NCBI GenBank assembly: GCA_030619365.1
Contig: JAUXBQ010000001.1
Span: 1 to 42,716 of the forward strand
DNA from: a candidate division FCPU426 bacterium
GTDB taxonomy: Bacteria > Oederibacteriota > JAAXVQ01 > JAUVAV01
DNA length: 42,716 bases
Reading direction: 5' to 3'
The position numbers and the translations under genes were made by a program. Positions 912 through 34,876 of this stretch are shown here, one piece after another. The stretch's first letter is position 1. Every line of letters starts with the position of its first letter. The notes beneath the pieces are model-generated. The model had not been told where the DNA came from. It worked only from the letters and a program-made list of their open reading frames with translations, and made no database searches.

Positions 912-3437
912 TTAATGTAAATCGCAAGTAACCATATCGTTTAATTTTGCTTCCCATTCATCCTCAGCCAAGACTTCAAAGTGCATGCCTTTGTTTTTCA
1001 TCTTCAAACCAAGATCAGTCCAATTACTTGATTGTGCCTGCTTTGTGCAAATATCAAAAACTTTTCGTATATATTCAGTTTTTGAATTGTCTATTAAATG
1101 CAGCCCTTTTGTTTCAACCACATAAACGCGGTCATATTCGCGGCTCTGTTCTTTATCAAAGGAAGTAAAGATAAAATCCGGATAGATTTTATGTTGGGCC
1201 CAGCCCTGGATCGAATAATCCAGCCGGGCGCGATTGCGGTACCAGAAAAAAAGGCGTTCTTGTTTTTCTAGATACCAAGCCACGGCTTTTTCAGTTTCAT
1301 TGAAATCTTCCTCTGGGACAAACTCGAAAAGACTTAATTCAAGCTGGCTTCCGTCTTGTTTGGTCAAAGTCCTGGAAGTGGGTTTGATGCGGATTTGGGA
1401 AGGAAAATGAAAAGAAAGGTCTTTCCCGATTATTAAAAAGCGCAATTGATCTTCTTTTAACATGCCGTGGAAAACAGCTTCAGCTAGGCGGTTTTTCTCC
1501 TGTTCCAGAAATTTTCTAAGTTCCTGGATGATGAACACAAAATTATCCGCCAGCATTTTTTCGGATGTGTTCCCACGGAAATGGTCTAAAAGCGTTTTGG
1601 CAAATTCATGAGCTTGCCAGGGATTGGGAACAACATCACCCAACTGCCGGGTCATAAAGACAGGATCAATACGAATACCGCCGCTTTTTAACTGCCTAAC
1701 CGACCTTTGCCGGATAATTTCATGGTGGTCGTCAGCCAGGGTGGCAATATGCTCAATATCTTTTTCTTCAAACGCAGATAATGACAGTTTTTTCACAGGG
1801 GATAAATCGACCTTGCCCCAGGGAATTCTGGCTGCAATATCCATCGCGTAATTTACAGGACGCCAGCTTTTCCCGTTTTTTACCACAAAAACCGGCAAAA
1901 TGGTTCTGCCGGCAGCTTGCTTGAACCGGTCTCGAATACTAACAAAACGTTCTTCGCCGGATATATCACCGGCTGGCTGGTCAATGGCAATATGTCCACG
2001 CAAATCGCCCAAACCTTCGCGGGCGAATCCATCCCGAATGCTGTCAAGCAATTGATTTGCTTTCTGCTGGAAACAAAACACATAACTTTCATCAAGTTCT
2101 TGGATTCCTGTCTTTCTTGCCATTGGTTGGCGCAGAATACGGCCTACAAGCTGAGTAAGGGCGTTTTGGGAAGAAGGATTGGTTAAAATAACCAGAACAT
2201 ACGCGAACGCACAGTCCCAGCCCTCTTGCAGAGCTTGTTTGGTGATAATATAGCGGATTTGACAATCCCGCGTCATTAAACCGCCAATGTTATCTATTTC
2301 TTTCAATTCATCTTTTTCGCTGGTCTTGATTGCTATTTGATCGGCCGGGATACTCATGTTTTTAATGAGATGTTCCCGGACGTGTTCAGAGTGAATATAG
2401 CGGCTGCCCTGTTGGTCGCGTCCTGTGCGTTCGACTTGAATTAAGCATATTGGCCGAATGTTAATCCCGGTTTTAGCTTCGTGTTTTTTAGCCTTTTCTT
2501 CCAGTGAATTACGCCGGTTATAGCCATCAAGCAGGGTATCTTTCCAATCCAGACTGGCTTTGTTTATGACATGGAGATCAAGCTTAATCATTTCTTCACA
2601 GTGCAGTTCACGCCCTGTGATATCAATTAAAATATTGCTTTGAACCGGCGTGGCGGAAAATTCAGCAATTATACGGGGATTAAAACCACGCAGGGTTTCC
2701 TGGGCGCCTTCACTGTAAGCCTTATGTCCTTCATCCAGGATAATAACAGGCGAAAGCAGCCTTAGCGTATTGCCCAGAGAAGTTTTTATTTGCCGCCCCC
2801 AAAAGCCGCTTTCTTTTTCATAAGTATCAAGGTTGGGAAATTTCTTTAGCACGTTTTCCTGGCTTTTAATATCATCCTCGTTGGGGAAAAAATCCTGGAA
2901 ACCTCCGCTATCCTTGAAAACTTTTAAAGTCTCCTTGGTTTTTCGATTGGCCGAAGGCAGCATAAGCATAAGGACCACTAAATTTTCAGCAACATCCTGG
3001 GGAGCAAAGCGGTCGGTTTTTTCCAGAATAAGAGTATGCCCGCCGCTGGCGAGATCAAGATGCTGGCGGTAGGGATGATCCCGGTCTTTAAGGTGATTAA
3101 TCGTTTGGCGGTAAATCTGGGTGGTTGGAACAATCCAAAGCACAAGGCCAGTCTTTTGTTTTCGATAAGTCATATTAATTGAATCGATGGTTTTAACTGC
3201 CAAGAGCGTTTTGCCGCCGCCGGTTGGTATTTTAAAACAAAAGTCGGGAAGCGGCTGGTTGAGGCCGTTCTTGCGGTCGGCATAAGGGCATCTTATACCG
3301 GCTTTTTCCCAGGCTTTAACCGGGAAGTCTATTTCCAGCTCAGGATTATTTTCAGCCTTGGTTCTCCATTCGGCTAATAATTCCAAATAACGCCTGAGCT
3401 CGCTTAAGGCTCTTTGCTGATATTCTTTAAGCTGCAT
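912..3437 (-). CDS. res: Type III restriction enzyme, Res subunit (SF2 helicase plus PD-(D/E)xK nuclease)
   Basis: 841-aa ORF. Helicase motifs are I 'KIPTGGGKTLLA', II 'IILDEGHKA', III 'FSATP' and VI 'QLVGRILRQP'. The C-terminal nuclease signature is 'YPDFIFT...VYVVETKG'. The ATG lies 3 nt after the mod stop, giving the classic mod-res order. Confidence 0.9.
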   Translation of the reverse strand: MQLKEYQQRALSELRRYLELLAEWRTKAENNPELEIDFPVKAWEKAGIRCPYADRKNGLNQPLPDFCFKIPTGGGKTLLAVKTIDSINMTYRKQKTGLVLWIVPTTQIYRQTINHLKDRDHPYRQHLDLASGGHTLILEKTDRFAPQDVAENLVVLMLMLPSANRKTKETLKVFKDSGGFQDFFPNEDDIKSQENVLKKFPNLDTYEKESGFWGRQIKTSLGNTLRLLSPVIILDEGHKAYSEGAQETLRGFNPRIIAEFSATPVQSNILIDITGRELHCEEMIKLDLHVINKASLDWKDTLLDGYNRRNSLEEKAKKHEAKTGINIRPICLIQVERTGRDQQGSRYIHSEHVREHLIKNMSIPADQIAIKTSEKDELKEIDNIGGLMTRDCQIRYIITKQALQEGWDCAFAYVLVILTNPSSQNALTQLVGRILRQPMARKTGIQELDESYVFCFQQKANQLLDSIRDGFAREGLGDLRGHIAIDQPAGDISGEERFVSIRDRFKQAAGRTILPVFVVKNGKSWRPVNYAMDIAARIPWGKVDLSPVKKLSLSAFEEKDIEHIATLADDHHEIIRQRSVRQLKSGGIRIDPVFMTRQLGDVVPNPWQAHEFAKTLLDHFRGNTSEKMLADNFVFIIQELRKFLEQEKNRLAEAVFHGMLKEDQLRFLIIGKDLSFHFPSQIRIKPTSRTLTKQDGSQLELSLFEFVPEEDFNETEKAVAWYLEKQERLFFWYRNRARLDYSIQGWAQHKIYPDFIFTSFDKEQSREYDRVYVVETKGLHLIDNSKTEYIRKVFDICTKQAQSSNWTDLGLKMKNKGMHFEVLAEDEWEAKLNDMVTCDLH

Positions 3438-3440
3438 GTT

Positions 3441-5045
3441 TCACCTGGCAAGTTCGTAAATTTCAAAAGGCAATTGGCAAAAATCAATGCGGTATTGATC
3501 CAGATAAGCCTGGTCCAAGTATTTCGTGGGCGCAAACACCAATCGGCGTTTGTCTTTTTTAAGCGGCGGCAAGGAATCGGTAATATCTAAAGTAAGCGCC
3601 AGATTTTTAAGTTTAGATAAATCCGGTTTGTAGAATAGATAAACTTGATAGTTTTTACTTTCGCCGACGAAACCGGTCTTTATATCAATACCTTTTTCGT
3701 TAAATTCCTCTCCAGTGGCTGTGTAGAAAACATAGCGGGCAAGTTCTTTATAAGTGGGCAGATTATCGCCGTCAAGAATGCTTTCCAATTCAATGGCTTT
3801 GCCAAGCTCGAAGAAACTAAACGTGCCTTTCAAACCTTTTTTGAGAGTTTCATCTTTTGCCTTGGGAACGCCTTTTATTACCTGCCGTACTCTTTCGGCG
3901 GTAATTTTATCAGCGTAGTCTTCGCATTCAATCAAGATAAACTTACGATTGCCGCTGTCTTCTTTGTTGAGTGCGAGGACAGCATGAGCAGTTGTGCCGG
4001 AACCGGAAAACGAATCCAAAATAATGGCATCGTGATCAAACTGAGTATTTATCGAAATTAATTCCTTTATTAAACTTGAAGGTTTAGGATAATCCAGTTT
4101 TCGTTCAGTGAAAATTGATTTTAGTTCTATGCTTCCATGTGCTGTTGTTTTAACAATATCAGATTCTAAAATTGAAGAATACGCAGTGTTTGTCTCTGAC
4201 CCAGAAGGTATAATCCTATAAGCCTCAATATAACCATCGTCCTGCTTTTCAAAAACGACTAGTCCTTTTTTAATTAAACTATCGAGTTTGTCTTTGCTCA
4301 TCCGCCATCTTCCATCGGTTCCATCGGGTTTTTTAGGATAAACCTTTCCAAATTCTTCAGAGTTGATAGGATAATACATGGTAGGTCTATCTTCCCTACG
4401 GTCGCCTTGGCCCCATTGCCGTAAGCGTTCTTTACCTTCTTTCTCAGTAATGCGCTTGTCCGTTTTAAAATCGATTAATGAAATGTTTTTAGCATAGCAA
4501 ATAATGTATTCATGTAGTTTGGCTGTTTCCTGAGCTGTGGCTCCTTTTCCCAAACGCGACTTCCAAATAAAAGTTTCTATAAAATTTTGTTCACCAAATA
4601 CATTGTCCATCAACATTCGCAAGTGGTGATACTCATTGTCGTCAATGGATATAAATATTGCACCATTGTCCGCCAAAAGTTCCCGCAGCAGTTTCAATCT
4701 CGGAGTCATCATGCAGAGCCATTTGTCATGCCGGGTTAGGTCTTCACTATCAACAACTTTGCCCAGCCATTCCTGCATCATCGGTGAATTTACATTGTCA
4801 TTGTAAGCCCACTTTTCATTGCCGGTGTTGTAAGGCGGGTCAATATAGATGCATTTGATTTTTCCGGCATAAAGCGGCAGCAGGGCCTTGAGCGCTTTTA
4901 GATTATCGCCGTGTATAATCAGATTATCATTCAGACTGACTTTATCCGTTAAGCTTTTGCTTTTAATTGGAATTAATTCGTGGTATTTGACCAGCAAGTG
5001 GTGGTTTTGAACAAACGTTTTTCCTTTAAATTGGATTTGTGCCAT
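3441..5045 (-). CDS. mod: Type III DNA methyltransferase, Mod subunit (beta-class N6-A/N4-C methyltransferase)
   Basis: 534-aa ORF. Catalytic motif IV 'CIYIDPPYNTG' lies near the N-terminus. AdoMet motif I 'ILDSFSGSGTTAHA' lies in the C-terminal third. The order IV, variable region, I is typical of Type III Mod. It sits immediately upstream of res. Confidence 0.9.
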   Translation of the reverse strand: MAQIQFKGKTFVQNHHLLVKYHELIPIKSKSLTDKVSLNDNLIIHGDNLKALKALLPLYAGKIKCIYIDPPYNTGNEKWAYNDNVNSPMMQEWLGKVVDSEDLTRHDKWLCMMTPRLKLLRELLADNGAIFISIDDNEYHHLRMLMDNVFGEQNFIETFIWKSRLGKGATAQETAKLHEYIICYAKNISLIDFKTDKRITEKEGKERLRQWGQGDRREDRPTMYYPINSEEFGKVYPKKPDGTDGRWRMSKDKLDSLIKKGLVVFEKQDDGYIEAYRIIPSGSETNTAYSSILESDIVKTTAHGSIELKSIFTERKLDYPKPSSLIKELISINTQFDHDAIILDSFSGSGTTAHAVLALNKEDSGNRKFILIECEDYADKITAERVRQVIKGVPKAKDETLKKGLKGTFSFFELGKAIELESILDGDNLPTYKELARYVFYTATGEEFNEKGIDIKTGFVGESKNYQVYLFYKPDLSKLKNLALTLDITDSLPPLKKDKRRLVFAPTKYLDQAYLDQYRIDFCQLPFEIYELAR

Positions 5046-18277: not shown

Positions 18278-19036
18278 CTATTGCCCGTATTCCAATCTGG
18301 AAGCGAGAAATTCCGGTAATCCGGCAGAAAGAATCTTTTTCTGTGAAACCGCGATATCATAGGAAAGCGCCCTAAATTCAAGCTCCGGCGGTTTTTCCCT
18401 GACCAATAGCCACTTGGCCCGGGGGTCGTTGTCGCGGGGTTGTCCCACGCTCCCGCCGTTCACGACATAGCGGTTGCCGGGTTCCAAGGCCAGGTGCCTG
18501 AGACCGACCCGGTCCGTGGAATAGGACGGCAGGCTGATGGACTGAACGACGCCTGGCACGATTTCTGCCGCCGCGGCCGGCACATGCGTGTGCCCGAAAA
18601 AGCAAATGGTTTCAGAAAAGGCCCGAAAAGCGTTTTCCAGGTTCCAGCGATGCTGGAGATAGTGAAAACGCAGCGGTTCGTCCGGTGAGCCATGGACCAG
18701 TCGGGCGTCAGCCCCGACTTTGACCAGCGGCCACTGGGCGATGCGCTCGCGCTGGGCGCCGGTCAGGCGGGTCTGCGTCCAGCGTTCGGCCACAGCCGCC
18801 ACGGGATTCATGGCCGCTATGTGAGCGGGCTGAAGCAGCGCGTCTTCGTGATTGCCCTGCAGCAGGATTTCGCAATGCTCGCAGACCAGGTCCAGGCAGG
18901 CCGCGGGGTCCGCGCCATAGCCGATCACGTCGCCCAGGCAGTAAACCGCGTCCACGCCCGTGTCCCGGATATCCGCCAGGACCGCCTCCAGGGCTTCCAG
19001 ATTGCCGTGCACATCCGCGATGACCGCGACCCTCAC
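18278..19036 (-). CDS. metallophosphoesterase (YfcE/MJ0936-like)
   Basis: 'RVAVIADVHGNLEALEAVL', 'VYCLGDVIGYGADP', 'LQGNHE' and 'FFGHTH' motifs. I prefer the GTG at 19036 (GGGGAGAG 8 nt upstream). The ORF-track start is 19081. Confidence 0.8.
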   Translation of the reverse strand: MRVAVIADVHGNLEALEAVLADIRDTGVDAVYCLGDVIGYGADPAACLDLVCEHCEILLQGNHEDALLQPAHIAAMNPVAAVAERWTQTRLTGAQRERIAQWPLVKVGADARLVHGSPDEPLRFHYLQHRWNLENAFRAFSETICFFGHTHVPAAAAEIVPGVVQSISLPSYSTDRVGLRHLALEPGNRYVVNGGSVGQPRDNDPRAKWLLVREKPPELEFRALSYDIAVSQKKILSAGLPEFLASRLEYGQ

Positions 19037-19093
19037 TTGAGTTGCTCTCCCCGCAAACACCAACGGCACTGCCGCGCTCACGGGGATAAATGT

Positions 19094-19190
19094 CCCCGCC
19101 CTGACGGGCGGGGTATTCAGGATACCCTCACCCCTACCCCTCTCCCTGCTAGGGAGAGGGCATGCGGTTACCCCGCACTTACGTGCGGGG
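19094..19190. repeat. cluster of three GC-rich stem-loops (REP-like)
   Basis: The three are CCCCGCCC-tgac-GGGCGGGG (19094..19113), CCCTCTCCCT-gct-AGGGAGAGGG (19138..19160) and CCCCGCAC-ttac-GTGCGGGG (19171..19190). The outer two resemble each other. The middle one, with its upstream ACCCTCACCCC, resembles 5151..5193. Confidence 0.7.
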
Positions 19191-19227
19191 ATTCTTTGGT
19201 ATGTTGAACAGTGCCGCCTAAGTTTGC

Positions 19228-19419
19228 TTACTCTTCTATCAGGATGGCAGCGGCCGGACAGACATCCGCCGTGTTCTTGGCCTTATCCGCCAAATCGCCT
19301 TCCGGGTTTGCCACGAGCACCTTGGCCAATCCATTGTCAGCCATCTCAAAGACTTCTGGCAGGTCCGTAGTACACAGGCTGCAGCCCGTGCACAAGCTTT
19401 CATCTATAGTGACTTTCAT
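19228..19419 (-). CDS. small single-cluster ferredoxin
   Basis: 63 aa. 'CTGCSLC' plus distal 'CP' (CxxCxxC...CP). Strong SD AAGGAGGA upstream of the ATG. Confidence 0.85.
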   Translation of the reverse strand: MKVTIDESLCTGCSLCTTDLPEVFEMADNGLAKVLVANPEGDLADKAKNTADVCPAAAILIEE

Positions 19420-19488
19420 TGCGAGCTTCCTCCTTCTGATTGATATTCTTACTCAACTTATGCAAATACCCATTCACCGTATGCTATT

Positions 19489-19606
19489 AACGACCAGGCG
19501 GGTGGTCTGCTTTTACCAAGTCTCGCGCCCTGGCTGGGCGCTTGCTGTCATGACCAGGTTTTTCTTCGCCACCTCTTGGGAAAAGCAGACCACCCGCTTG
19601 GTTGTT
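19489..19606. repeat. long imperfect inverted repeat: 32-nt arms with 29/32 complementary, 54-nt spacer
   Basis: The left arm is AACGACCAGGCGGGTGGTCTGCTTTTACCAAG (19489..19520). The right arm is CTTGGGAAAAGCAGACCACCCGCTTGGTTGTT (19575..19606). The spacer holds a nested CGCCC-N5-GGGCG hairpin (19526..19540). It lies between the DUF116 stop and the ferredoxin start. Confidence 0.8.
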
Positions 19607-19662
19607 CCAGCACCGGATTGCTCCCACCGAAGCTAAAGCTGTTTTTTGCAAAAATCGTGTTA

Positions 19663-20469
19663 TTATTTAACGGCAGGCTTCCCTGGTTGGCCCAGGAACA
19701 TGCGAATGGCCTCCTCAATTTGCGTGAGATCCACCACCGTGTTCTTACAGGGTCCGTCCGGTCTCCGAATGGAAAAAGCCAGCACCGGTATCCGGCCGTG
19801 CAGGTCCTTGATACCCACCAATAAATCCCGCTCACAGGCCACGGCCACAATGCCCTGGGGCCGGTGTTGGGCAATGCCCTTGCGGGCCTCTGTGCCGCCG
19901 AAGGCCACAACTTGGGAAAAACCATAAGCGTCCTTCAGGGCCCGCAGTCCCTGCATGCTCTCCCTGCCCAGGCAACGCGGCGCCAGAAGCAACAACCGGA
20001 CCGGGTCCTGAATCAAGGGCGGCAGTACTTCCAGGCGGTTGTAAATGCGCACAAAGGCGTGTCCCACGCGGTCGCGCGATAACCCGAACACCTTGCCCCA
20101 GGTCACGGCCGGACTGATGGCCCAGCGGATGCCCCCGAGAAAACGCACCATCTGCTTGCCAGCACCCAGGCCCTGCGTTCCCAGCAGTAGAGACAGGTAC
20201 CAAGCCAGTAGATAACCCGCTCCCGCGGCCGCGATTACCCAAACCAGCCAGCCCGTGCCAAAGGCCGAGAGCCGCGGAGCAACCAACCATAGCGCAAGTC
20301 CGCCGAGCGCCATGGCACTTGCCATTGTCAAGCCAGTCAAAACGACGAACACCCAGGCCGGCGTTTCGGTGTTGTCCTGTTGACGGGTTCCGTCCCAGTC
20401 AACCCATTCGTCTCCCAGCTTGCGGTCCGGATCGGTCGCTGGCGGCTGATCTGGCTTTTCAAACGGCAC
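19663..20469 (-). CDS. DUF116-like membrane protein
   Basis: N-terminal TM helices, then 'LLLAPRCL...VVAFGGTEARKGI...PQGIVAVACERDLLVGI...IPVLAF...GPCKNTVVDL'. From memory this matches the DUF116 pattern (..GGT.A....IiaVACERDL..G...iP...GpC.nT.Vd). Family call not verified. Confidence 0.55.
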   Translation of the reverse strand: MPFEKPDQPPATDPDRKLGDEWVDWDGTRQQDNTETPAWVFVVLTGLTMASAMALGGLALWLVAPRLSAFGTGWLVWVIAAAGAGYLLAWYLSLLLGTQGLGAGKQMVRFLGGIRWAISPAVTWGKVFGLSRDRVGHAFVRIYNRLEVLPPLIQDPVRLLLLAPRCLGRESMQGLRALKDAYGFSQVVAFGGTEARKGIAQHRPQGIVAVACERDLLVGIKDLHGRIPVLAFSIRRPDGPCKNTVVDLTQIEEAIRMFLGQPGKPAVK

Positions 20470-20509
20470 TGGCCCAGTCCTCGCTATGATCGGCGATAAT
20501 CAGCTCAGA

Positions 20510-20538
20510 AGTATAAACGCCGGCCGGGGAACAGTCAA
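20510..20538 (-). promoter_or_regulatory. near-consensus sigma-70 promoter upstream of the DUF116-like gene
   Basis: Minus strand reads TTGACT (20538..20533), a 17-nt spacer, then TATACT (20515..20510). This is about 40 nt upstream of the GTG at 20469. Confidence 0.55.
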
Positions 20539-20612
20539 GAATGAATCCTGGTCCGCCGGGGTCCGGACTACGCTGGCCTGGATTTCAGGGGAGGGATGAC
20601 CAATGATCTAAT

Positions 20613-21239
20613 TTATGAGGCCAATAGGATAATCCCCTTAAAAGCAAACCACAATCCAATTCCACCCGCAGCCCAGCGGCCGACGACTTGAATCCACTTT
20701 CCCCTGGCCAGTAGGCCCGCGGCCGGCAGGGGCAATAAAATCAGAGAGGTGCCGACAAAAAACGAGGACAGAACCAGGAAGCCGCCCCAGGGCCCGCCCG
20801 AGCGGGAGGCGCTCAGCAAAACGGCCAGAAAAGGCGGACAGATATTGATGCCGGTCAGGAGCCCCAGCATAAGGGGCGTGCGCTCTTGCCAGGCGCCTTT
20901 TTCCAGAAACCGGCAAAACGACCAGTGGGGAAAATTCTGCAATAGGGCAAACAGGACCAGTACCACGCCCAAGCCGGTAAAAACCACGCCTTCCAGCAGG
21001 CGGGCCGGCCGGTCCGGCAACATGATTTCCCGGCCCATCCAGCCGGCCAGGAGCCCCATGGCGGCGTAGCCGATAAAACGCCCACCTAGAAATTGCCCGA
21101 ACGCCTTGAGGTTGGCCAGCCCGCTCCGTTGCTCGGCCCCGAAATAGGGGAGCAGGAGGGGCACGCATACGCCCAGGCAGGAGGGAGAAAGAGCCAGGCC
21201 CAAAATGAATCCTTGTCCCAATAGGGTGGAAATATCCAT
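20613..21239 (-). CDS. CcdA/DsbD-like (DsbD_2/TauE-like) polytopic membrane protein
   Basis: 208 aa with about 6 hydrophobic helices. A TM1 Cys-Pro context 'GLALSPSCLGVCVPLLLPY' and a later 'GINICPPFL' recall the two TM cysteines of CcdA (SPCvLP / PCigP). The CDS call is solid. The functional call is tentative. Confidence 0.5.
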   Translation of the reverse strand: MDISTLLGQGFILGLALSPSCLGVCVPLLLPYFGAEQRSGLANLKAFGQFLGGRFIGYAAMGLLAGWMGREIMLPDRPARLLEGVVFTGLGVVLVLFALLQNFPHWSFCRFLEKGAWQERTPLMLGLLTGINICPPFLAVLLSASRSGGPWGGFLVLSSFFVGTSLILLPLPAAGLLARGKWIQVVGRWAAGGIGLWFAFKGIILLAS

Positions 21240-21305: not shown

Positions 21306-22571
21306 TCAGGCGGTTGGGGCGGGATACTTTTTGACCATGACCAGCTGATTGGCCCCCTTGCGCGAGACGTACTGCACGTTATCCATCAGGGAATTGATTA
21401 AAATACCGCCCACGCCCCGCTCCTCGCTCCGTTGGATAGCCGCCCGAATTGAGCGGACTTTGCGACGGGTGATGTCATAGGGGGCGCCCCGGTCCTGTAT
21501 CCTGATTGCCAGATATTTCTTGAAAAAGCGTATCTTTACGCTCATGACCTGGTGGGTGTCGAAATCGTAACCGTGCTCAATTATGTTGAGCAGGGCCTCT
21601 TCCACCGCCAGCACCACGTCATTTACGAAGGTTTCCGGGAATTTTTCCTGCTCGCAGATGCTGGTGATAAACTGACGGATCGCGCCGATATGATTGACGT
21701 CACTGTTGATTTTAATTTCCACGTCTCTAAACCGCGTGGGGGGCGGACTCTCCGGGCTCCCCTTTTTGAGCGTAATGACGTGCGCCCAGGCATCAACGAA
21801 AAATATTTCGCCGCAATGCTGGCAGCGATAGATATTCATCCCCTTCACGTGCGCCTGAGAGCGGCAGCTGTGGCAATTGACCAGGCAGGGAAATTTCGCG
21901 AGGCGCTCGTCTTCATAGACGTGCAGGGAGAAGCGTTTATCCACTTCCCCATCGCCGATGCTCAGGGTGCGATACCCTGAATCCGTAATGGCGATTTTGC
22001 CTTCCCACACACCGCTCTGAAAATCCTTGAGTACGTGGGGAAAAACCAACCCCTCGTCAACCGCGAAGTGCGGTTCTCCCTCGTAGTCCTGGACGGGCTG
22101 TTCATCCCGGTCGCGCGCCTCCACCCTGATTTCGTGTTCCCGCCCGGCGACGAATTTCTTTTCTTTTTTCAGGAAAATTTTAAAATGGCTGACAGCCGTC
22201 TGGGCCGCTTTTAACTCCAGCGGCCGCCATTCGGCCACTTCGGTTTCCGCGTCCAGGAAATCAACGATATCCGTCAAACCAATGCCCTTAAAAACATTCA
22301 GGACTTTGGGCGACACGTGCAGCAGCTTGATGTCTCCCCCGGGCTGATTGCGCACGCGCTTCAGGCAGCCGACAATCGCCCCCACGCCCACGGAACTGAT
22401 GTAGTCCATCTCCGTCAGGTCGATGAGAATCCGGGTTTGCTGGTTGTCGATTAATTTCTGCAGGCAAGACTTGAATTCGGGCGTGGAATAGACATCAATT
22501 GTGCCCTGGACTTTCAGGCGGGTAACCTCGGCATTTACTTCGCTGGGCGCTATTTCGAAGGTTGTTTCCAT
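21306..22571 (-). CDS. fusion protein: STAS (anti-sigma-factor antagonist) domain, unassigned domain, CxxC-x13-CxxC zinc ribbon, RsbW/SpoIIAB-type serine kinase domain
   Basis: STAS region: 'ILIDLTEMDYISSVGVGAIVGCLKRVRNQPGGDIKLLHVSPKVLNVFKGIGLTDI'. Zinc knuckles: 'NCHSCRSQAHVKGMNIYRCQHCGEIF'. Kinase N box 'VLAVEEALLNIIEHGY', G1 'IQDRGAPYD' and G2 'ERGVGGILINSLMDNV'. I prefer the ATG at 22571 (METTFEI). The ORF-track TTG start is 22589. Confidence 0.8.
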   Translation of the reverse strand: METTFEIAPSEVNAEVTRLKVQGTIDVYSTPEFKSCLQKLIDNQQTRILIDLTEMDYISSVGVGAIVGCLKRVRNQPGGDIKLLHVSPKVLNVFKGIGLTDIVDFLDAETEVAEWRPLELKAAQTAVSHFKIFLKKEKKFVAGREHEIRVEARDRDEQPVQDYEGEPHFAVDEGLVFPHVLKDFQSGVWEGKIAITDSGYRTLSIGDGEVDKRFSLHVYEDERLAKFPCLVNCHSCRSQAHVKGMNIYRCQHCGEIFFVDAWAHVITLKKGSPESPPPTRFRDVEIKINSDVNHIGAIRQFITSICEQEKFPETFVNDVVLAVEEALLNIIEHGYDFDTHQVMSVKIRFFKKYLAIRIQDRGAPYDITRRKVRSIRAAIQRSEERGVGGILINSLMDNVQYVSRKGANQLVMVKKYPAPTA

Positions 22572-22617
22572 ATCCAACCCTTTCTGCAAACCCTGGAAAA
22601 CAGGCTATAAATATTTA

Positions 22618-22726
22618 GCCACAGATACATACAGATGCACACAGAAAAATAAAGATTAAATAAAAATAAGTATTTAAAGATTTTTTACTCTAGCTCGATC
22701 TGTGTGAATCCGTGTGCATCTGTGGC
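22618..22726. repeat. imperfect inverted repeat of CACAGAT-type units: 27-nt arms with 23/27 complementary, around a 55-nt almost pure A/T spacer
   Basis: The left arm is GCCACAGATACATACAGATGCACACAG (22618..22644). The right arm is CTGTGTGAATCCGTGTGCATCTGTGGC (22700..22726). It lies in the divergent intergenic region between 22571 and 23015. Confidence 0.8.
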
Positions 22727-22886
22727 GATTCTTATCCTGCGCCGGGTCGTTCCCGGTGGCTGGCCATAAGCCCGCGCCGCACCCGCGCCCGTCCGGACGC
22801 ATCCGGAGAAACTAAATTGTACCCAGGTTAAAACAGGGGAGTCAATGATAATCATCGGCGCCCTGTCCCGGAGAGAAGGTTTGCCA

Positions 22887-22916
22887 TTGGTAAAAAGGCA
22901 TTCTATCCCTTATAAT
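22887..22916 (+). promoter_or_regulatory. candidate sigma-70 promoter for the STAS and PP2C operon
   Basis: TTGGTA (22887..22892), an 18-nt spacer, then TATAAT (22911..22916). This is about 100 nt upstream of the ATG at 23015. The -35 element is only a partial match. Confidence 0.35.
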
Positions 22917-23014
22917 AATCCAGTGGCGAGGCATTGGGCTCTGTTGGCTCGATACCCGCAGACTAACCGCGCCGGGAGTAACGGCCCCCGGCTTTCGGCC
23001 TTGAGCGAGGTACT

Positions 23015-23368
23015 ATGAGCGGCGTTAAACTATCCCAGGAGCTTCAGGACGGCATCGTAATCCTCCGGGTCAGCGGCTTTATGGACATGTTGGGAATGGA
23101 AAAATTCGTGCAAACGCTGGATAGATGTATTATGGATGGCACCAGTAAAATTATTTTGGATTTTAAGTTCCTGGAATATATTTCCTCAGCCGGGTTGGGG
23201 GCCATAATCGGCCGTATCCGCGACCTGCGGCGGGTCGGCGGCGACATCAAAATAGGCGGTTACTCTGACCGGGTTTTTGAGCTGTTTCAAACCTTTGGGT
23301 TCACCGAGACCTTTGACATCTGTGACGACATCGCCAAAGCGCTCGCAAACTTTAAAAATCCGTCTTAA
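23015..23368 (+). CDS. STAS-domain anti-sigma-factor antagonist (SpoIIAA/RsbV-like)
   Basis: 117 aa. 'IILDFKFLEYISSAGLGAIIGRIRDLRRVGGDIKIGGYSDRVFELFQTFGFTETF' includes the conserved phosphorylatable Ser context. GAGG SD upstream. Confidence 0.9.
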   Translation: MSGVKLSQELQDGIVILRVSGFMDMLGMEKFVQTLDRCIMDGTSKIILDFKFLEYISSAGLGAIIGRIRDLRRVGGDIKIGGYSDRVFELFQTFGFTETFDICDDIAKALANFKNPS

Positions 23369-23455: not shown

Positions 23456-25018
23456 TTGCCCACCGCTAATCCGCGCGAAAAACCCGCTCACGTGACCCAG
23501 ACCCGGGCCTTCCGCCCGGGCCTGGGCCTCGGTTTCAAAATTTCCGCGGCCATTATCATTCTCATTTCCATCGTCATGGGCCTGGTCACCTGGGTGGTGC
23601 GCGAGCGAGTACAGGATACCCTGCTGGCCCAGATGCGGCTCAAAGGCCTGGCGCTAACCCGGGGCCTGGCCGCCAACGCCGCGGAAGCACTGATCACCGC
23701 TGATCGCCTCTTGCTATCCGAGCTGGTTGACAAGGCCGTCAAGCAGGAAGACGGCATCAACTTCGTAGCGTTGGTGGACGAAGAGGGCGTGATCCTGGCG
23801 CACAGTAATTACCAGCAGGAGGGGCAGAGGTATACCCTGCCGCCCGACTTCAGTCATGAACAGCTCCAAACCGGGCGCCTTTCCTATTATACGCTGGACG
23901 GCGAACCCTGCCTGGACTTTGCCCTGCCTATTCTGCTGGAGGAAATGGGCATCGGTTTGAAGAAAAAACTGGGAACCGCCCACGTCGTATACCTGCTCTC
24001 GCCCATCAGGCAGATTGTGAACACCACCCTCCGGGATATTTTTTACATCGCTGCCGGCGGTTTGGCGTTGGGCATCCTGTTCGCTCTGTTTCTGGTCAAG
24101 CGCATTACGCGGCCCATCGCCCGCCTGGCCGGGGCTGCCCATAAAATCGGCGCGGGCAATCTTGATCTCTCGTTGAAAATAACCAGTCGCGATGAATTAG
24201 GACAGCTGGCGTCGACCTTCAACCTGATGACCGCCAATCTAAAAAAGGCCCAAGCCGAATTAATCGTCAAGGAACGGCTGCAGCATGAAATGGAACTGGC
24301 CAGGCAAATACAGACTCTCCTGGTCCCTAAAAAAAGCCCCACGCTTCCAGGTTATTCGATCGGCATGCTGTACCGCGCCGCCCAGGAGGTCAGCGGGGAT
24401 TACTTTGATTTTATTGAGTTGGGCCATGGCCAGTGGGGCATTGTCATGGCCGACGTTTCAGGCAAAGGTATTCCGGGTGGGCTGGTCATGGCGCAGACCC
24501 GCGCCACGCTCAGGACCGTAGCGCCCGCGAGCACCTCCCCCCGGGAAACACTGTCCAAAACGCAGAGACAGCTGGATCAGGACATTCGCGAGGACATGTT
24601 CATCACGCTGTCCTATTTGGTTCTGGATGTCGCCAAAAAGCAACTCTGTTTGGCCCGGGCCGGGCACTTGGGCGCGCTGGTCTATCGTCAGGCCCTGGGC
24701 CGGTGTGAAATGGAAATGCCCGCCGGCATTGCGATCGGCATCGCGGACCCGGACACGTTTGAACGGAAACTTAGTGAAAAAACGATCAAGTTGCATCCCG
24801 GCGATTTCATTTTCCTCTACACGGACGGCATCGACGAGGCCAGCGACGAGGCCAACCACCTCTTTGGGCTGAACCGCCTGGTCAAGTGCCTGGTGGCTTC
24901 GGCCTCCTTACGGGCGGAAAAGATTATTACCCGGGTCGAACAGGCTGTCCGGGCTTTCGCCGGGAACGCCCCTCAAAATGACGACATGACCATGATCGTT
25001 ATTAAAATTGAAAAATAA
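23456..25018 (+). CDS. membrane sensor, HAMP domain and PP2C (SpoIIE/RsbU-type) serine phosphatase
   Basis: Two TM helices flank an extracytoplasmic region of about 150 aa. HAMP: 'RITRPIARLAGAAHKIGAGNLDLSLKITSRDELGQLASTFNLM'. PP2C motifs: 'EVSGDYFDF', 'VMADVSGKGIPG', 'LYTDGIDEA' and 'QNDDMTMIVIK'. The start codon is uncertain (TTG at 23456 or GTG at 23492). Confidence 0.88.
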   Translation: MPTANPREKPAHVTQTRAFRPGLGLGFKISAAIIILISIVMGLVTWVVRERVQDTLLAQMRLKGLALTRGLAANAAEALITADRLLLSELVDKAVKQEDGINFVALVDEEGVILAHSNYQQEGQRYTLPPDFSHEQLQTGRLSYYTLDGEPCLDFALPILLEEMGIGLKKKLGTAHVVYLLSPIRQIVNTTLRDIFYIAAGGLALGILFALFLVKRITRPIARLAGAAHKIGAGNLDLSLKITSRDELGQLASTFNLMTANLKKAQAELIVKERLQHEMELARQIQTLLVPKKSPTLPGYSIGMLYRAAQEVSGDYFDFIELGHGQWGIVMADVSGKGIPGGLVMAQTRATLRTVAPASTSPRETLSKTQRQLDQDIREDMFITLSYLVLDVAKKQLCLARAGHLGALVYRQALGRCEMEMPAGIAIGIADPDTFERKLSEKTIKLHPGDFIFLYTDGIDEASDEANHLFGLNRLVKCLVASASLRAEKIITRVEQAVRAFAGNAPQNDDMTMIVIKIEK

Positions 25019-25075: not shown

Positions 25076-25417
25076 TCAGCGCATGCCGTGTTTTAACAAT
25101 TGGCTCCAAATAATCAGCTTGCCCTGCTTGTTGTTGTTGAAATCCATGAACTTCTCGACGTCTTTGGCCTGCTGAGCCGTGGGGTGATAGGCGTAGATTG
25201 GATCATCTGCTTCTCCCCACTGCCGCAGAAACCGCCTCTCTTTCAATAGTGAGAGCGGCTCTTTCAGGTCATTGGTTCGCCGCCCCAACCGGCTGGCAAT
25301 TCCTTCGGTGGTGTCGGTAATACCGGGATTATTCCATAAAAACACGAGTAATTCCCACATCACCAGGGAATCGACATTAGTGGCGATAAATTTGTCTAAT
25401 TCCTTGTCAAGCTTCAC
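25076..25417 (-). CDS. hypothetical protein, possibly a winged-helix fold
   Basis: 113 aa. GTG start with GGAGG 5 nt upstream and its own promoter. 'VMWELLVFLWNNPGITDTTEGIASRLGRRTNDLKEPLSLLKERRFL' looks like a MarR/ArsR-style wHTH by eye. No family recognised. Confidence 0.5.
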   Translation of the reverse strand: MKLDKELDKFIATNVDSLVMWELLVFLWNNPGITDTTEGIASRLGRRTNDLKEPLSLLKERRFLRQWGEADDPIYAYHPTAQQAKDVEKFMDFNNNKQGKLIIWSQLLKHGMR

Positions 25418-34063: not shown

Positions 34064-34876
34064 TCAGATCCAGTCCTGCAACTTGCAAAACATCACCAGC
34101 GCCGCTTCCACGCGTTCACGCAGACGCTCAGGCCGGCGCGCGTGCAAGGCTCCCTCCGGGGCGTTCAGCAATTCGGGCGCCACGCCGAACCGGATCCAGG
34201 GAACCGGCTGCCGGGCATGCAGGCGCAGCAAATGCCCGTCCGGCGCGGGCGTGTTGAGTCCGACCCGGCCCGGCAGGTCGGAAAAGCGAGCGGCCAGAAT
34301 GTCGCGAAAATCGCGGACCCATTCCGCCGGACAGCTGATTGGCCCGGAATGCGGCAAAGCCTCTCCCCGTTCGTCTCCCTGGTTGCCAAGCGCGAGAATG
34401 ATTCGGTGCGGATCCGGCCGGCTGGGACGACCAACGGAAGTCCCGCTCGATGTTCCCCTCCGGTCGGGGCGGCCAACGGAGGCGGGCAGGACAAAACAAT
34501 CCAACACGGTCTTGACCCGGCCCGCGGCCAGAGCTTCGGAAACCCTGCGGTGCCAGGTCTGATAATAATCGGCCAACAGCCTATGTTTAATCTGTTTGGC
34601 GTTTTTCTTGGCCAGGGCAATGATCGGGGTGTGGTCCGGCCAGGTTTCCGCCAGCGCGTCATCCCGCGGGGCGTCCAGATTCAGCACGGCTGGGGAGAGT
34701 TCGCCCGCCAGCAGGCACTCCAGGCGATCCCCTATATCCATGCTTTCCCGCAGGAGTCGGTTGGCCGTTTCCGCGCCGCGCGGTCGAGGTTCCCTGGGTT
34801 CAGCGTGTAATGCAGGGGGAATCGTATCGCCGGCCTGCGGCAGCACGATCAGGAGCGGAAGTTTTTTCTGGAGCAT
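34064..34876 (-). CDS. possible N-formylglutamate amidohydrolase (FGase)-family protein, divergent
   Basis: Weak by-eye resemblance only. 'LLIVLPQAGDTIP' resembles the family pattern ..vPHaG..iP. 'VLNLDAPR' resembles DlNR. 'YYQTWHRRV...VLDCFVLP' resembles yH..i...iHSf. 'VGLNTPAPDG' resembles N.Pf.G. Several positions I would expect to be His are not. Low confidence in function. Confidence 0.35.
   Translation of the reverse strand: MLQKKLPLLIVLPQAGDTIPPALHAEPREPRPRGAETANRLLRESMDIGDRLECLLAGELSPAVLNLDAPRDDALAETWPDHTPIIALAKKNAKQIKHRLLADYYQTWHRRVSEALAAGRVKTVLDCFVLPASVGRPDRRGTSSGTSVGRPSRPDPHRIILALGNQGDERGEALPHSGPISCPAEWVRDFRDILAARFSDLPGRVGLNTPAPDGHLLRLHARQPVPWIRFGVAPELLNAPEGALHARRPERLRERVEAALVMFCKLQDWI

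Follow-up and report, generated by a model that had tools for sequence, protein, structure and literature searches.

The window examined here is the whole 42,716-nucleotide (42.7-kb) stretch of contig JAUXBQ010000001.1 from a candidate division FCPU426 bacterium (assembly GCA_030619365.1), and our subject is a gene on its minus strand that joins a STAS domain of the anti-sigma-factor-antagonist type and an RsbW/SpoIIAB-type serine kinase in one protein. The gene is a single uninterrupted open reading frame (ORF) at 21306..22589, which encodes 427 amino acids (aa) when counted from a TTG codon. The true start is likely the ATG at 22571, because the resulting 421-aa product is identical to the database protein P0001 and the N-termini of relatives align at this position. 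Residues are numbered on the 421-aa product, except for Pfam hit coordinates, which follow the 427-aa numbering. Pfam recognizes STAS (PF01740) at residues 17-111 with 52.5 bits against a cut-off of 22.6 and HATPase_c_2 (PF13581) at residues 295-420 with 86 bits against a cut-off of 27.4, and it assigns no family to residues ~120-290 of the protein. An earlier note on this DNA had described the gene as a fusion of STAS and kinase. That observation was confirmed, all of the peptide strings that it quoted are found in the protein, and the strand, which it had left unstated, can be added.

Two further genes lie across a divergent intergenic region from the fusion gene (Table 1). The first encodes the 117-aa STAS protein to which the earlier note had pointed, an assignment that holds in Pfam. 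The second, unmentioned there, encodes a sensor phosphatase with Pfam matches to SpoIIE (151 bits), HAMP (62.7 bits), and sCache_3_2 (40.7 bits). A kinase, a STAS protein, and a PP2C phosphatase are all encoded together in the window, and by homology and logic we identify them as a partner-switching system of the RsbV-RsbW-RsbU or SpoIIAA-SpoIIAB-SpoIIE kind.

Table 1. Features of the fusion gene and its surroundings in the window, and composition of related loci (L) and proteins (P)
Feature	Position or members	Strand	Description
Whole fusion gene	21306..22571	-	STAS - Ig-like - Cys4 zinc ribbon - RsbW-type kinase, 421 aa; stop codon 21306-21308
STAS domain	22236..22571	-	Residues 1-112; candidate phospho-acceptor Ser60, second S of YISSVGVG, codon 22392-22394
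Linker 1	22191..22235	-	Residues 113-127; poorly conserved, low model confidence
Ig-like beta-sandwich	21912..22190	-	Residues 128-220; single copy of a repeat otherwise known from giant secreted proteins
Zinc-ribbon module	21756..21911	-	Residues 221-272; FP-x4-CxxC-x13-CxxC, then conserved strand FFVDAWAHVITLKKGS
Linker 2	21720..21755	-	Residues 273-284; little conservation, modelled with low confidence
RsbW/SpoIIAB-type GHKL Ser kinase domain	21321..21719	-	Residues 285-417
Divergent intergenic region	22572..23014	.	Separates the fusion gene from the STAS-phosphatase pair; both strands have sigma-70-like hexamers, consensus matches only
Free single-domain STAS protein	23015..23368	+	117 aa; motif YISSAGLG; Pfam STAS 59.4 bits
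Sensor phosphatase	23456..25018	+	520 aa; N-terminal membrane segment, sCache, HAMP, SpoIIE/PP2C
Window clade (3)	window, L001, L002/3, L004, L005, L016, L017; P0003, P0028, P0145		STAS-Ig-ribbon-kinase; serine present in every copy whose N-terminus lies on the contig
L015 (P0031)	L015		Same protein; phosphatase and free STAS convergent; serine kept
Clade 5	L006, L009-14, L030, L032		TPR, phosphatase, free STAS, fusion, membrane GAF-GGDEF
Clade 6	L018-24, L026, L029, L033, L034		Phosphatase, free STAS, fusion, soluble MCP-signal protein; serine kept; L034 without fused STAS
Clade 7	L007/8/31, L025, L027, L028, L035, L036		Different PP2C protein, then fusion, no free STAS; serine present in every copy whose N-terminus lies on the contig
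Clades 1 and 2	L037-40, L042-44		STAS-ribbon-kinase without Ig domain, preceded by phosphatase; serine kept

Domains of the fusion protein

Four lines of comparison agree on the STAS domain that the earlier note had placed at the N-terminus. Besides the Pfam match, the NCBIfam anti-sigma-factor-antagonist model TIGR00377 scores 64.5 bits, above its cut-off of 53.45, and HMMER searches against solved structures return Bacillus subtilis RsbV as the best match (E 1e-11). For structural comparison, we built two AlphaFold2 models of the full-length protein, the first from 4 sequences and the second from a 16-sequence alignment; the latter has a mean predicted local distance difference test score (pLDDT) of 81.6. 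The modelled STAS domain (pLDDT ~75-93) is matched by Foldseek to RsbV (6m36) and SpoIIAA (1th8_B) with template modelling (TM) scores of 0.90 and 0.84, respectively. In the HMMER alignment, YISSVG of the fusion protein pairs with YMDSTG of RsbV and FMDSSG of SpoIIAA, and the column of Ser60 holds the first Ser of the DST/DSS motif in these two proteins and Ala in the 1tid/1til SpoIIAA chain. We take the aligned position to be that of the phospho-acceptor serine (RsbV Ser56, SpoIIAA Ser58). At the level of sequence and predicted fold, these results show that the fused STAS domain is of the RsbV/SpoIIAA type and has a serine at the phospho-acceptor position.

The C-terminal domain is likewise placed by Pfam, Foldseek, and HMMER alignment where the earlier note had put an RsbW/SpoIIAB-type kinase. 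Its best match among solved structures is B. subtilis RsbW (6m36_A, E 6e-10), and Foldseek pairs the modelled domain with SpoIIAB, RsbW, and UsfX at a TM score of ~0.8. The templates found by Foldseek include RsbV-RsbW, SpoIIAA-SpoIIAB, and UsfX-RsfB complexes, with TM scores of 0.8-0.9 per domain. Alignment with RsbW and SpoIIAB indicates that the kinase motifs are intact (N-box E325, N329, and H333; G1 D360-x-G362; G2 G386-x-G388), and the residues of the ATP-binding motifs are invariant in 40 of 40 family sequences. These comparisons show an RsbW/SpoIIAB-type Ser kinase domain for which kinase activity is predicted. The NCBIfam equivalog models for RsbW and SpoIIAB all remain below their cut-offs (NF003144, 59.9 bits against 145; TIGR01924, 52.3 against 155; TIGR01925, 48.2 against 135). 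Because these scores fall so far short, we assign the domain to the RsbW/SpoIIAB superfamily and not as an orthologue of either protein.

Of the region between the two ends, the earlier note had left ~100 residues unassigned, beta-rich by eye; profile searches, modelling, and Foldseek now identify them as an immunoglobulin (Ig)-like beta-sandwich. A profile built on residues ~109-283 of four family members was searched exhaustively against 1.84 billion representative proteins and gave 753 matches, P0010-P0158 among them. In giants of 2,000-6,700 aa, a single protein can hold as many as 23 tandem copies that match positions ~13-98 of this profile. Two smaller repeat proteins, P0082 and P0033, have an N-terminal signal peptide followed by repeats with the signature of the window domain, and the elements common to both are DHF..., TVTA-D..GN, Y-G, and GVW-G. 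The domain is modelled as an all-beta sandwich (pLDDT ~80-90), and Foldseek returns fold matches to the S-layer protein SbsC, intimin, and filamin. Pfam gives no Ig-family match for the middle region of the window protein even at E values up to 1, and the repeat proteins themselves score below threshold (Big_1, 18 bits against 34.9; Invasin_D3, 19 against 33; Filamin, 19.6 against 26.9). The middle domain therefore appears to be an Ig-like module of an uncurated repeat family. In giant secreted or surface proteins this repeat occurs in tandem, whereas the fusion protein, which lacks a signal peptide, carries one copy between cytoplasmic signalling domains. Among the Ig-repeat proteins, which reach 6,700 aa, some have an archaeal pilin-type N-terminus or InlB B-repeats (P0082, P0033, and P0041 were inspected).

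The remainder of the middle region holds the CxxC-x13-CxxC knuckle that had been noticed earlier, here CHSC-x13-CQHC (21813..21875), with Cys233, Cys236, Cys250, and Cys253. The four cysteines and Pro228 are invariant in 40 of 40 unique sequences, with no insertions or deletions between the knuckles; together with the invariant catalytic motifs, this points to purifying selection. In the 4-sequence model this region has a pLDDT below 50; the 16-sequence alignment raised the score, and the ribbon is then modelled as five short beta-strands (pLDDT ~84-86). A search of the PDB with the middle-region profile gave a marginal similarity to the eL43/L37ae zinc ribbon alone (E 0.065). On its sequence features we regard the module as a real Cys4 zinc ribbon with predicted metal binding.

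The same FP-x4-CxxC-x13-CxxC unit, present once in the fusion protein, is tandemly repeated in 5-10 copies in P0121 (residues ~1750-2650) and P0154 (~2030-2330). These are giants of 2,300-2,700 aa with a hydrophobic N-terminus, maybe a signal or membrane segment, and for a giant protein that may be extracytoplasmic, such repetition of a Cys4 ribbon is unusual.

Linker 1 shares 22% identity within the group of the window protein, compared with 41-54% for the domains, and has a pLDDT below 50 at residues 119-125. Both linkers are probably flexible.

Family members and conserved gene neighbourhoods

An indexed protein search found three full-length relatives at 43-53% identity, and word-indexed searches with a single sequence or a 14-sequence profile gave 4-5 full-length relatives; the family was revealed by exhaustive and metagenome scans. 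Two genome loci were found in addition, one of them from a Candidatus Firestonebacteria metagenome-assembled genome and the other with two tandem paralogues. The exhaustive search added cluster representatives of ~411-417 aa, all seven of those checked by Pfam having the STAS...HATPase_c_2 arrangement, and the metagenome scan added about 20 loci. We then scanned per-domain hidden Markov models against all ORFs of at least 60 aa in 75 fetched loci. In total, there are 40 distinct sequences with zinc ribbon and kinase at 95% identity, which fall into seven clades (Table 1). On these data, the fusion is a real conserved architecture, and its family is small, rare, and so far known only from uncultured bacteria and metagenomes. 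The ribbon on the kinase, usually together with the Ig domain, is the constant hallmark of the family, and the ribbon is never lost.

The gene neighbourhoods of these sequences recur. A phosphatase gene adjoins the fusion gene in the window and in L006-8, L010-12, L014-15, L018-28, L032, L034, L037-40, and L042-44, and a free STAS gene (~118 aa) adjoins it in the window and at least 16 related loci, always with the motif YISSAGLG. The full trio is present in the window, L006, L010-12, L014-15, L018-24, L026, L032, and L034. Aligned end to end, the window phosphatase shares 35-51% identity with those encoded beside the fusion genes of L010, L012, L014, and L015, which have the same sCache-HAMP-PP2C layout, and fusion proteins from clades with the same gene set are 25-37% identical to each other. 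The kinase, STAS, and phosphatase genes thus appear to be co-inherited across divergent lineages, with an association that is incomplete in the clade of the window itself. Tandem STAS-Ig-ribbon-kinase paralogues occur in L004 (5983-7305 and 7427-8701) and L017 (1-783 and 836-2179), with no phosphatase or free STAS gene near either pair; both copies in L004 keep the phospho-site serine, and the N-terminus of the first copy in L017 is cut by the contig end.

Clade 5 shows how far the fused STAS domain can change. Four of five full-length members have P, N, A, or E in place of the serine, which L009/P0058 keeps, and in L032 the region of the fused STAS contains stop codons, i.e., the domain has decayed. 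Identity between members is 20% for the fused STAS, compared with 60% for the kinase and 70-86% for the adjacent free STAS. A tetratricopeptide repeat (TPR) gene precedes the phosphatase gene in L010, L011, and L012. A GAF-GGDEF gene lies downstream of the fusion gene in L006 (2299-3711), L010 (7456-8874), L011 (5930-7339), L030 (982-2394), and L032 (3180-4601), and in L014 (3112-3570) the N-terminal part only of a homologue is on the contig.

A different gene takes this place in clade 6. It encodes an MCP-signal protein of 330-366 aa, located at 5891-6883 in L018, 6669-7757 in L019, 7518-8618 in L020, 7583-8638 in L021, and 7238-8293 in L034, and its start overlaps the stop of the kinase gene in all five cases tested. 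This layout suggests a link of partner switching to a chemotaxis-like pathway. In L034 the kinase protein is reduced to Ig-ribbon-kinase (299 aa), and the free STAS gene ends in a stop codon that overlaps the start of the kinase gene. No sigma factor was found among the annotated operon-adjacent genes of the related loci.

The distribution of the serine follows that of the free STAS gene. Where the fused STAS lacks the serine and upstream sequence is available (L006, L010/L011, L012, and L014), a free serine-bearing STAS is always adjacent, and where a phosphatase but no free STAS is present (L007/8, L025, L027, L028, L037-40, and L042-44), the fused STAS always retains the serine. Each module appears to keep at least one phosphorylatable STAS, as would be expected if STAS were the substrate of the kinase. 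The fused STAS can be serine-less or absent while the ribbon-kinase part is kept, which argues that the fusion is not the essential feature.

Other uncharacterised STAS/kinase fusions also turned up. STAS-then-kinase proteins with an acidic low-complexity linker of ~100 residues are encoded in L053 (1821-2846), L070 (840-1829), L072 (5407-6380), and L073 (718-1583), a direct STAS-kinase fusion of 266 aa in L062 (283-1083), and the kinase-then-STAS order is found in P0005, P0006, L061, L071, and L074. They differ from the window family in having neither the Ig-like domain nor the Cys4 ribbon, and the acidic-linker forms also lack the phospho-serine motif.

Outside the three genes, most of the window is ordinary chromosome, with an rpoN-hpf-ptsN-hprK cluster, phosphotransferase system (PTS) genes, uvrA, and genes of NAD, pantothenate, and folate biosynthesis. 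The 42.7 kb contain no sigma-70-family gene; the sole sigma factor gene is rpoN, 3 kb away in the cluster just named. The window also contains no GGDEF gene and no tRNAs. Directly downstream of the fusion gene and on the same strand, 18278-21239(-) encodes a DsbD_2 thiol-disulfide membrane protein (67 bp past the stop codon), a DUF116 protein, a small 4Fe-4S ferredoxin, and a metallophosphoesterase. A redox theme this close to a kinase with a Cys4 ribbon is suggestive. On the strand opposite to the phosphatase gene and just past its downstream end, 25076-25417(-) encodes a 113-aa protein without a Pfam match, and a 270-aa ORF at 34064-34876(-) also has none. At the contig edge, a ResIII/DEAD helicase-like protein (841 aa) is encoded next to an N6/N4 DNA methylase (534 aa) at 912-5045(-), a pair that may be a type III-like restriction-modification system.

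The divergent intergenic region contains an imperfect inverted repeat at 22618-22726, just upstream of the fusion start, with 46-nt arms that are 74% complementary and 17 nt apart. The repeat has an AT-rich centre and an ACAGAT-containing unit every 10 bp, and the motif CCACAGATNCANAC occurs in the window only at the two inverted-repeat sites, with 0.15 occurrences expected by chance. This element could be an operator or a structure in the 5' untranslated region.

Proposed partner-switching mechanism and competing readings

The reading that we favour, with moderate confidence, is that the fusion protein supplies both kinase and switch in a partner-switching module of three genes, which would have a tethered and a free STAS antagonist, a phosphatase for reset, and probably an output other than a sigma factor. 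In such a module, the kinase domain would bind and phosphorylate unphosphorylated STAS, both the tethered copy (either in cis or, if the protein dimerises, in trans) and the free copy. The Cache domain of the phosphatase would sense an extracytoplasmic signal, and the enzyme would then dephosphorylate and so reset both STAS domains. The partner that occupies the kinase would decide the output, with STAS occupancy setting whether another partner is bound or released. Tethering would give one STAS a high local concentration and make it a built-in competitor or buffer against the free STAS, not the whole switch.

The zinc ribbon, usually with the Ig domain, would provide a docking or oligomerisation surface for a further partner; we propose an interaction surface because the ribbon is the only accessory part that is never lost. 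The output partner is probably not a sigma factor, given that GGDEF or MCP genes take the output place in sister clades and no sigma-70-family gene is nearby. A more specific version, which we offer tentatively and regard as doubtful, is that the Ig and zinc-ribbon domains form a surface that captures non-sigma effectors (GGDEF, MCP-like, or other), so that the protein would be a general-purpose hub, a two-antagonist switch with an exchangeable output whose added domains derive from giant surface proteins. The tethered STAS would then compete for the kinase in cis, and the balance would be set by the free STAS and the Cache-PP2C phosphatase. The four cysteines may also make the switch sensitive to redox state or zinc.

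Several observations weigh against this three-gene scheme. Within the clade of the window, the phosphatase and free STAS genes adjoin the fusion gene only in the window itself, and neither is near the fusion in L001, L002/3, L004, L005, L016, or L017. The three-gene module is therefore weakest just where it is applied to the window. Even there, the fusion gene is divergent from the STAS and phosphatase genes, not co-oriented with them. The DsbD_2, DUF116, ferredoxin, metallophosphoesterase, and 113-aa proteins have no matches among the ORFs of at least 60 aa in the 75 related loci, which indicates that none of the five belongs to the module, and no output gene can be identified in the window. 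A sigma-factor target may be encoded elsewhere in the genome. The conserved residues of the Ig domain (GxW-G) are equally kept in extracellular repeats, so they look structural and do not point to a binding site. Both full-length models have a predicted TM score (pTM) of 0.47-0.49 with no confident packing between domains, and with values below 0.5 a docking of STAS on the kinase in cis is without structural support. Finally, we infer kinase activity, Ser60 phosphorylation, zinc binding, and all interactions.

The alternative that survives best, although we think it unlikely, is a self-contained intramolecular switch, in which the tethered STAS would be the sole relevant antagonist, docked in cis and released by autophosphorylation, and the adjacent STAS and phosphatase genes would belong to a separate pathway or provide mere reset. 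The earlier note had expected covalent fusion to make the switch intramolecular. In its favour, the loci of the window clade that lack adjacent free STAS and phosphatase genes all keep the serine, and a phosphatase without a free STAS is the arrangement in clades 1, 2, and 7. The two linkers also look flexible, and autophosphorylation of a fused STAS has a precedent in Rv1364c of Mycobacterium tuberculosis. Against these points stand the free phosphorylatable STAS and orthologous phosphatase genes adjacent in the window and L015, the conservation of the free STAS at 70-86% in clades 5 and 6 while the fused STAS drifts or disappears, and the lack of a confident cis complex in the models. With a free phosphorylatable STAS and a PP2C phosphatase accompanying the gene here and in three clades, the expectation of a purely intramolecular switch is weakened, yet it stays a live rival in the clade of the window.

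A classical anti-sigma factor, for which the probability seems low to us, would also partner-switch, but its kinase would sequester a sigma-70-family factor encoded elsewhere, the STAS domains would relieve this, and the Ig and ribbon domains would be a mere spacer. The closest solved relatives by sequence and fold, namely RsbW, SpoIIAB, and UsfX, are all anti-sigma factors, and the NCBIfam models for RsbW and SpoIIAB are the best named matches of the kinase, below their cut-offs. Pointing the other way, rpoN is the only sigma factor gene in the window, the annotated operon-adjacent genes of related loci include none, and the co-transcribed partners are GGDEF or MCP genes; moreover, the absolute conservation of the ribbon speaks against a passive spacer.

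Very unlikely, in our view, is a stressosome-like scaffold in which fused and free STAS would co-assemble as RsbR and RsbS do, in an oligomer that would hold the kinase domain, with the Ig and ribbon domains as a sensory or spacer arm. Two STAS domains per kinase are indeed encoded in the window and clade 6, and RsbS is among the weaker STAS matches (6qcm, E 0.004; 6jhk by Foldseek). However, RsbV and SpoIIAA match far better than RsbS, the STAS of RsbR is C-terminal to its sensor domain and not fused to the kinase, RsbT, which is a protein of its own, there is no RsbX-type feedback phosphatase, and many family members have a single STAS.

An artefact, i.e., a frameshift, mis-assembly, or read-through joining rsbV and rsbW, can be rejected with near certainty on the comparative data: distant relatives do have ordinary STAS and kinase genes next to each other and in this order (L045-52, L059, L064, and L066-67), but the ORF in the window has no stop codon or frame change that would split it into two genes, about 40 sequences obtained independently from many samples and with many assemblers share the same continuous ORF, and ~170 residues of conserved, well-folded Ig and zinc-ribbon sequence stand between STAS and kinase.

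Known systems and significance

The closest comparison for the favoured three-gene module is with RsbV-RsbW-RsbU (SigB) and SpoIIAA-SpoIIAB-SpoIIE (SigF) of B. subtilis, in which a STAS antagonist, a GHKL Ser kinase, and a PP2C/SpoIIE phosphatase have the same roles and folds. The genes described here depart from those modules in that one STAS is attached covalently to the kinase beside a second, free copy, in the Ig-like domain and Cys4 zinc ribbon at the N-terminus of the kinase, and in the phosphatase, a membrane sensor with sCache and HAMP domains; no sigma factor gene is nearby, and sister clades have GGDEF or MCP genes instead.

The statement in the earlier note that antagonist and kinase are separate polypeptides in the known systems is too strong. 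In M. tuberculosis Rv1364c, a single chain combines a sensor, PP2C, a GHKL kinase, and STAS, and the protein is reported both to phosphorylate the STAS domain that it carries and to remove the phosphate again (PMC7693655, citing Greenstein 2009 and Sachdeva 2008); the other STAS/kinase fusions found here occur in both orders. Rv1364c resembles the window protein in its covalent kinase-STAS fusion and in the structural match of its kinase (3ke6, by Foldseek). It differs in having the kinase before the STAS, the reverse of the order here, in carrying the phosphatase in the same chain and not in a separate gene, and in lacking the Ig-like domain and zinc ribbon. We also considered RsbW3 of Mycobacterium smegmatis as a precedent and discarded it, as it is a 194-aa kinase homologue and not a fusion.

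A partner-switching system with a non-sigma output is SiaABCD of Pseudomonas aeruginosa, which comprises the membrane HAMP-PP2C phosphatase SiaA, the RsbW-like kinase SiaB, the switch protein SiaC, and the diguanylate cyclase SiaD; SiaC is a small phosphorylated protein of anti-sigma-antagonist fold (PMC7647112). The top NCBIfam name for the window phosphatase is SiaA, at 67.5 bits against a cut-off of 700. The gene set of clade 5 is similar, with a GGDEF gene directly downstream. In contrast to the proteins described here, SiaC lies outside the Pfam STAS family and is phosphorylated on Thr, and SiaB is not extended by a STAS, Ig, or zinc-ribbon domain; the window, for its part, has no GGDEF gene.

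As the earlier note had suspected, no characterised protein with exactly this layout was found in Pfam, the PDB, or the literature searched. We found no paper combining STAS, RsbW, zinc ribbon, and Ig-like domains, and these same sources gave no description of an RsbW-type kinase with a zinc ribbon or an Ig-like domain. The kinase-STAS fusion has a studied precedent in Rv1364c, whereas none was found for the Ig and zinc-ribbon module.

Partner switching is widespread in bacteria, and few of its architectures have been studied. The significance of the present family is mechanistic and evolutionary, not applied, because the family is known solely from uncultured bacteria. Its members illustrate the recruitment of extracellular-type Ig repeats into a cytoplasmic signalling protein. 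The conserved Cys4 ribbon, usually with the Ig-like domain, on an RsbW-type kinase is a candidate for the missing link to non-sigma outputs, and the output genes differ by clade, being GGDEF, MCP, or none. With an antagonist that is tethered, free, both, degenerate, or absent on a constant kinase, the family offers a natural series for testing the effects of tethering.

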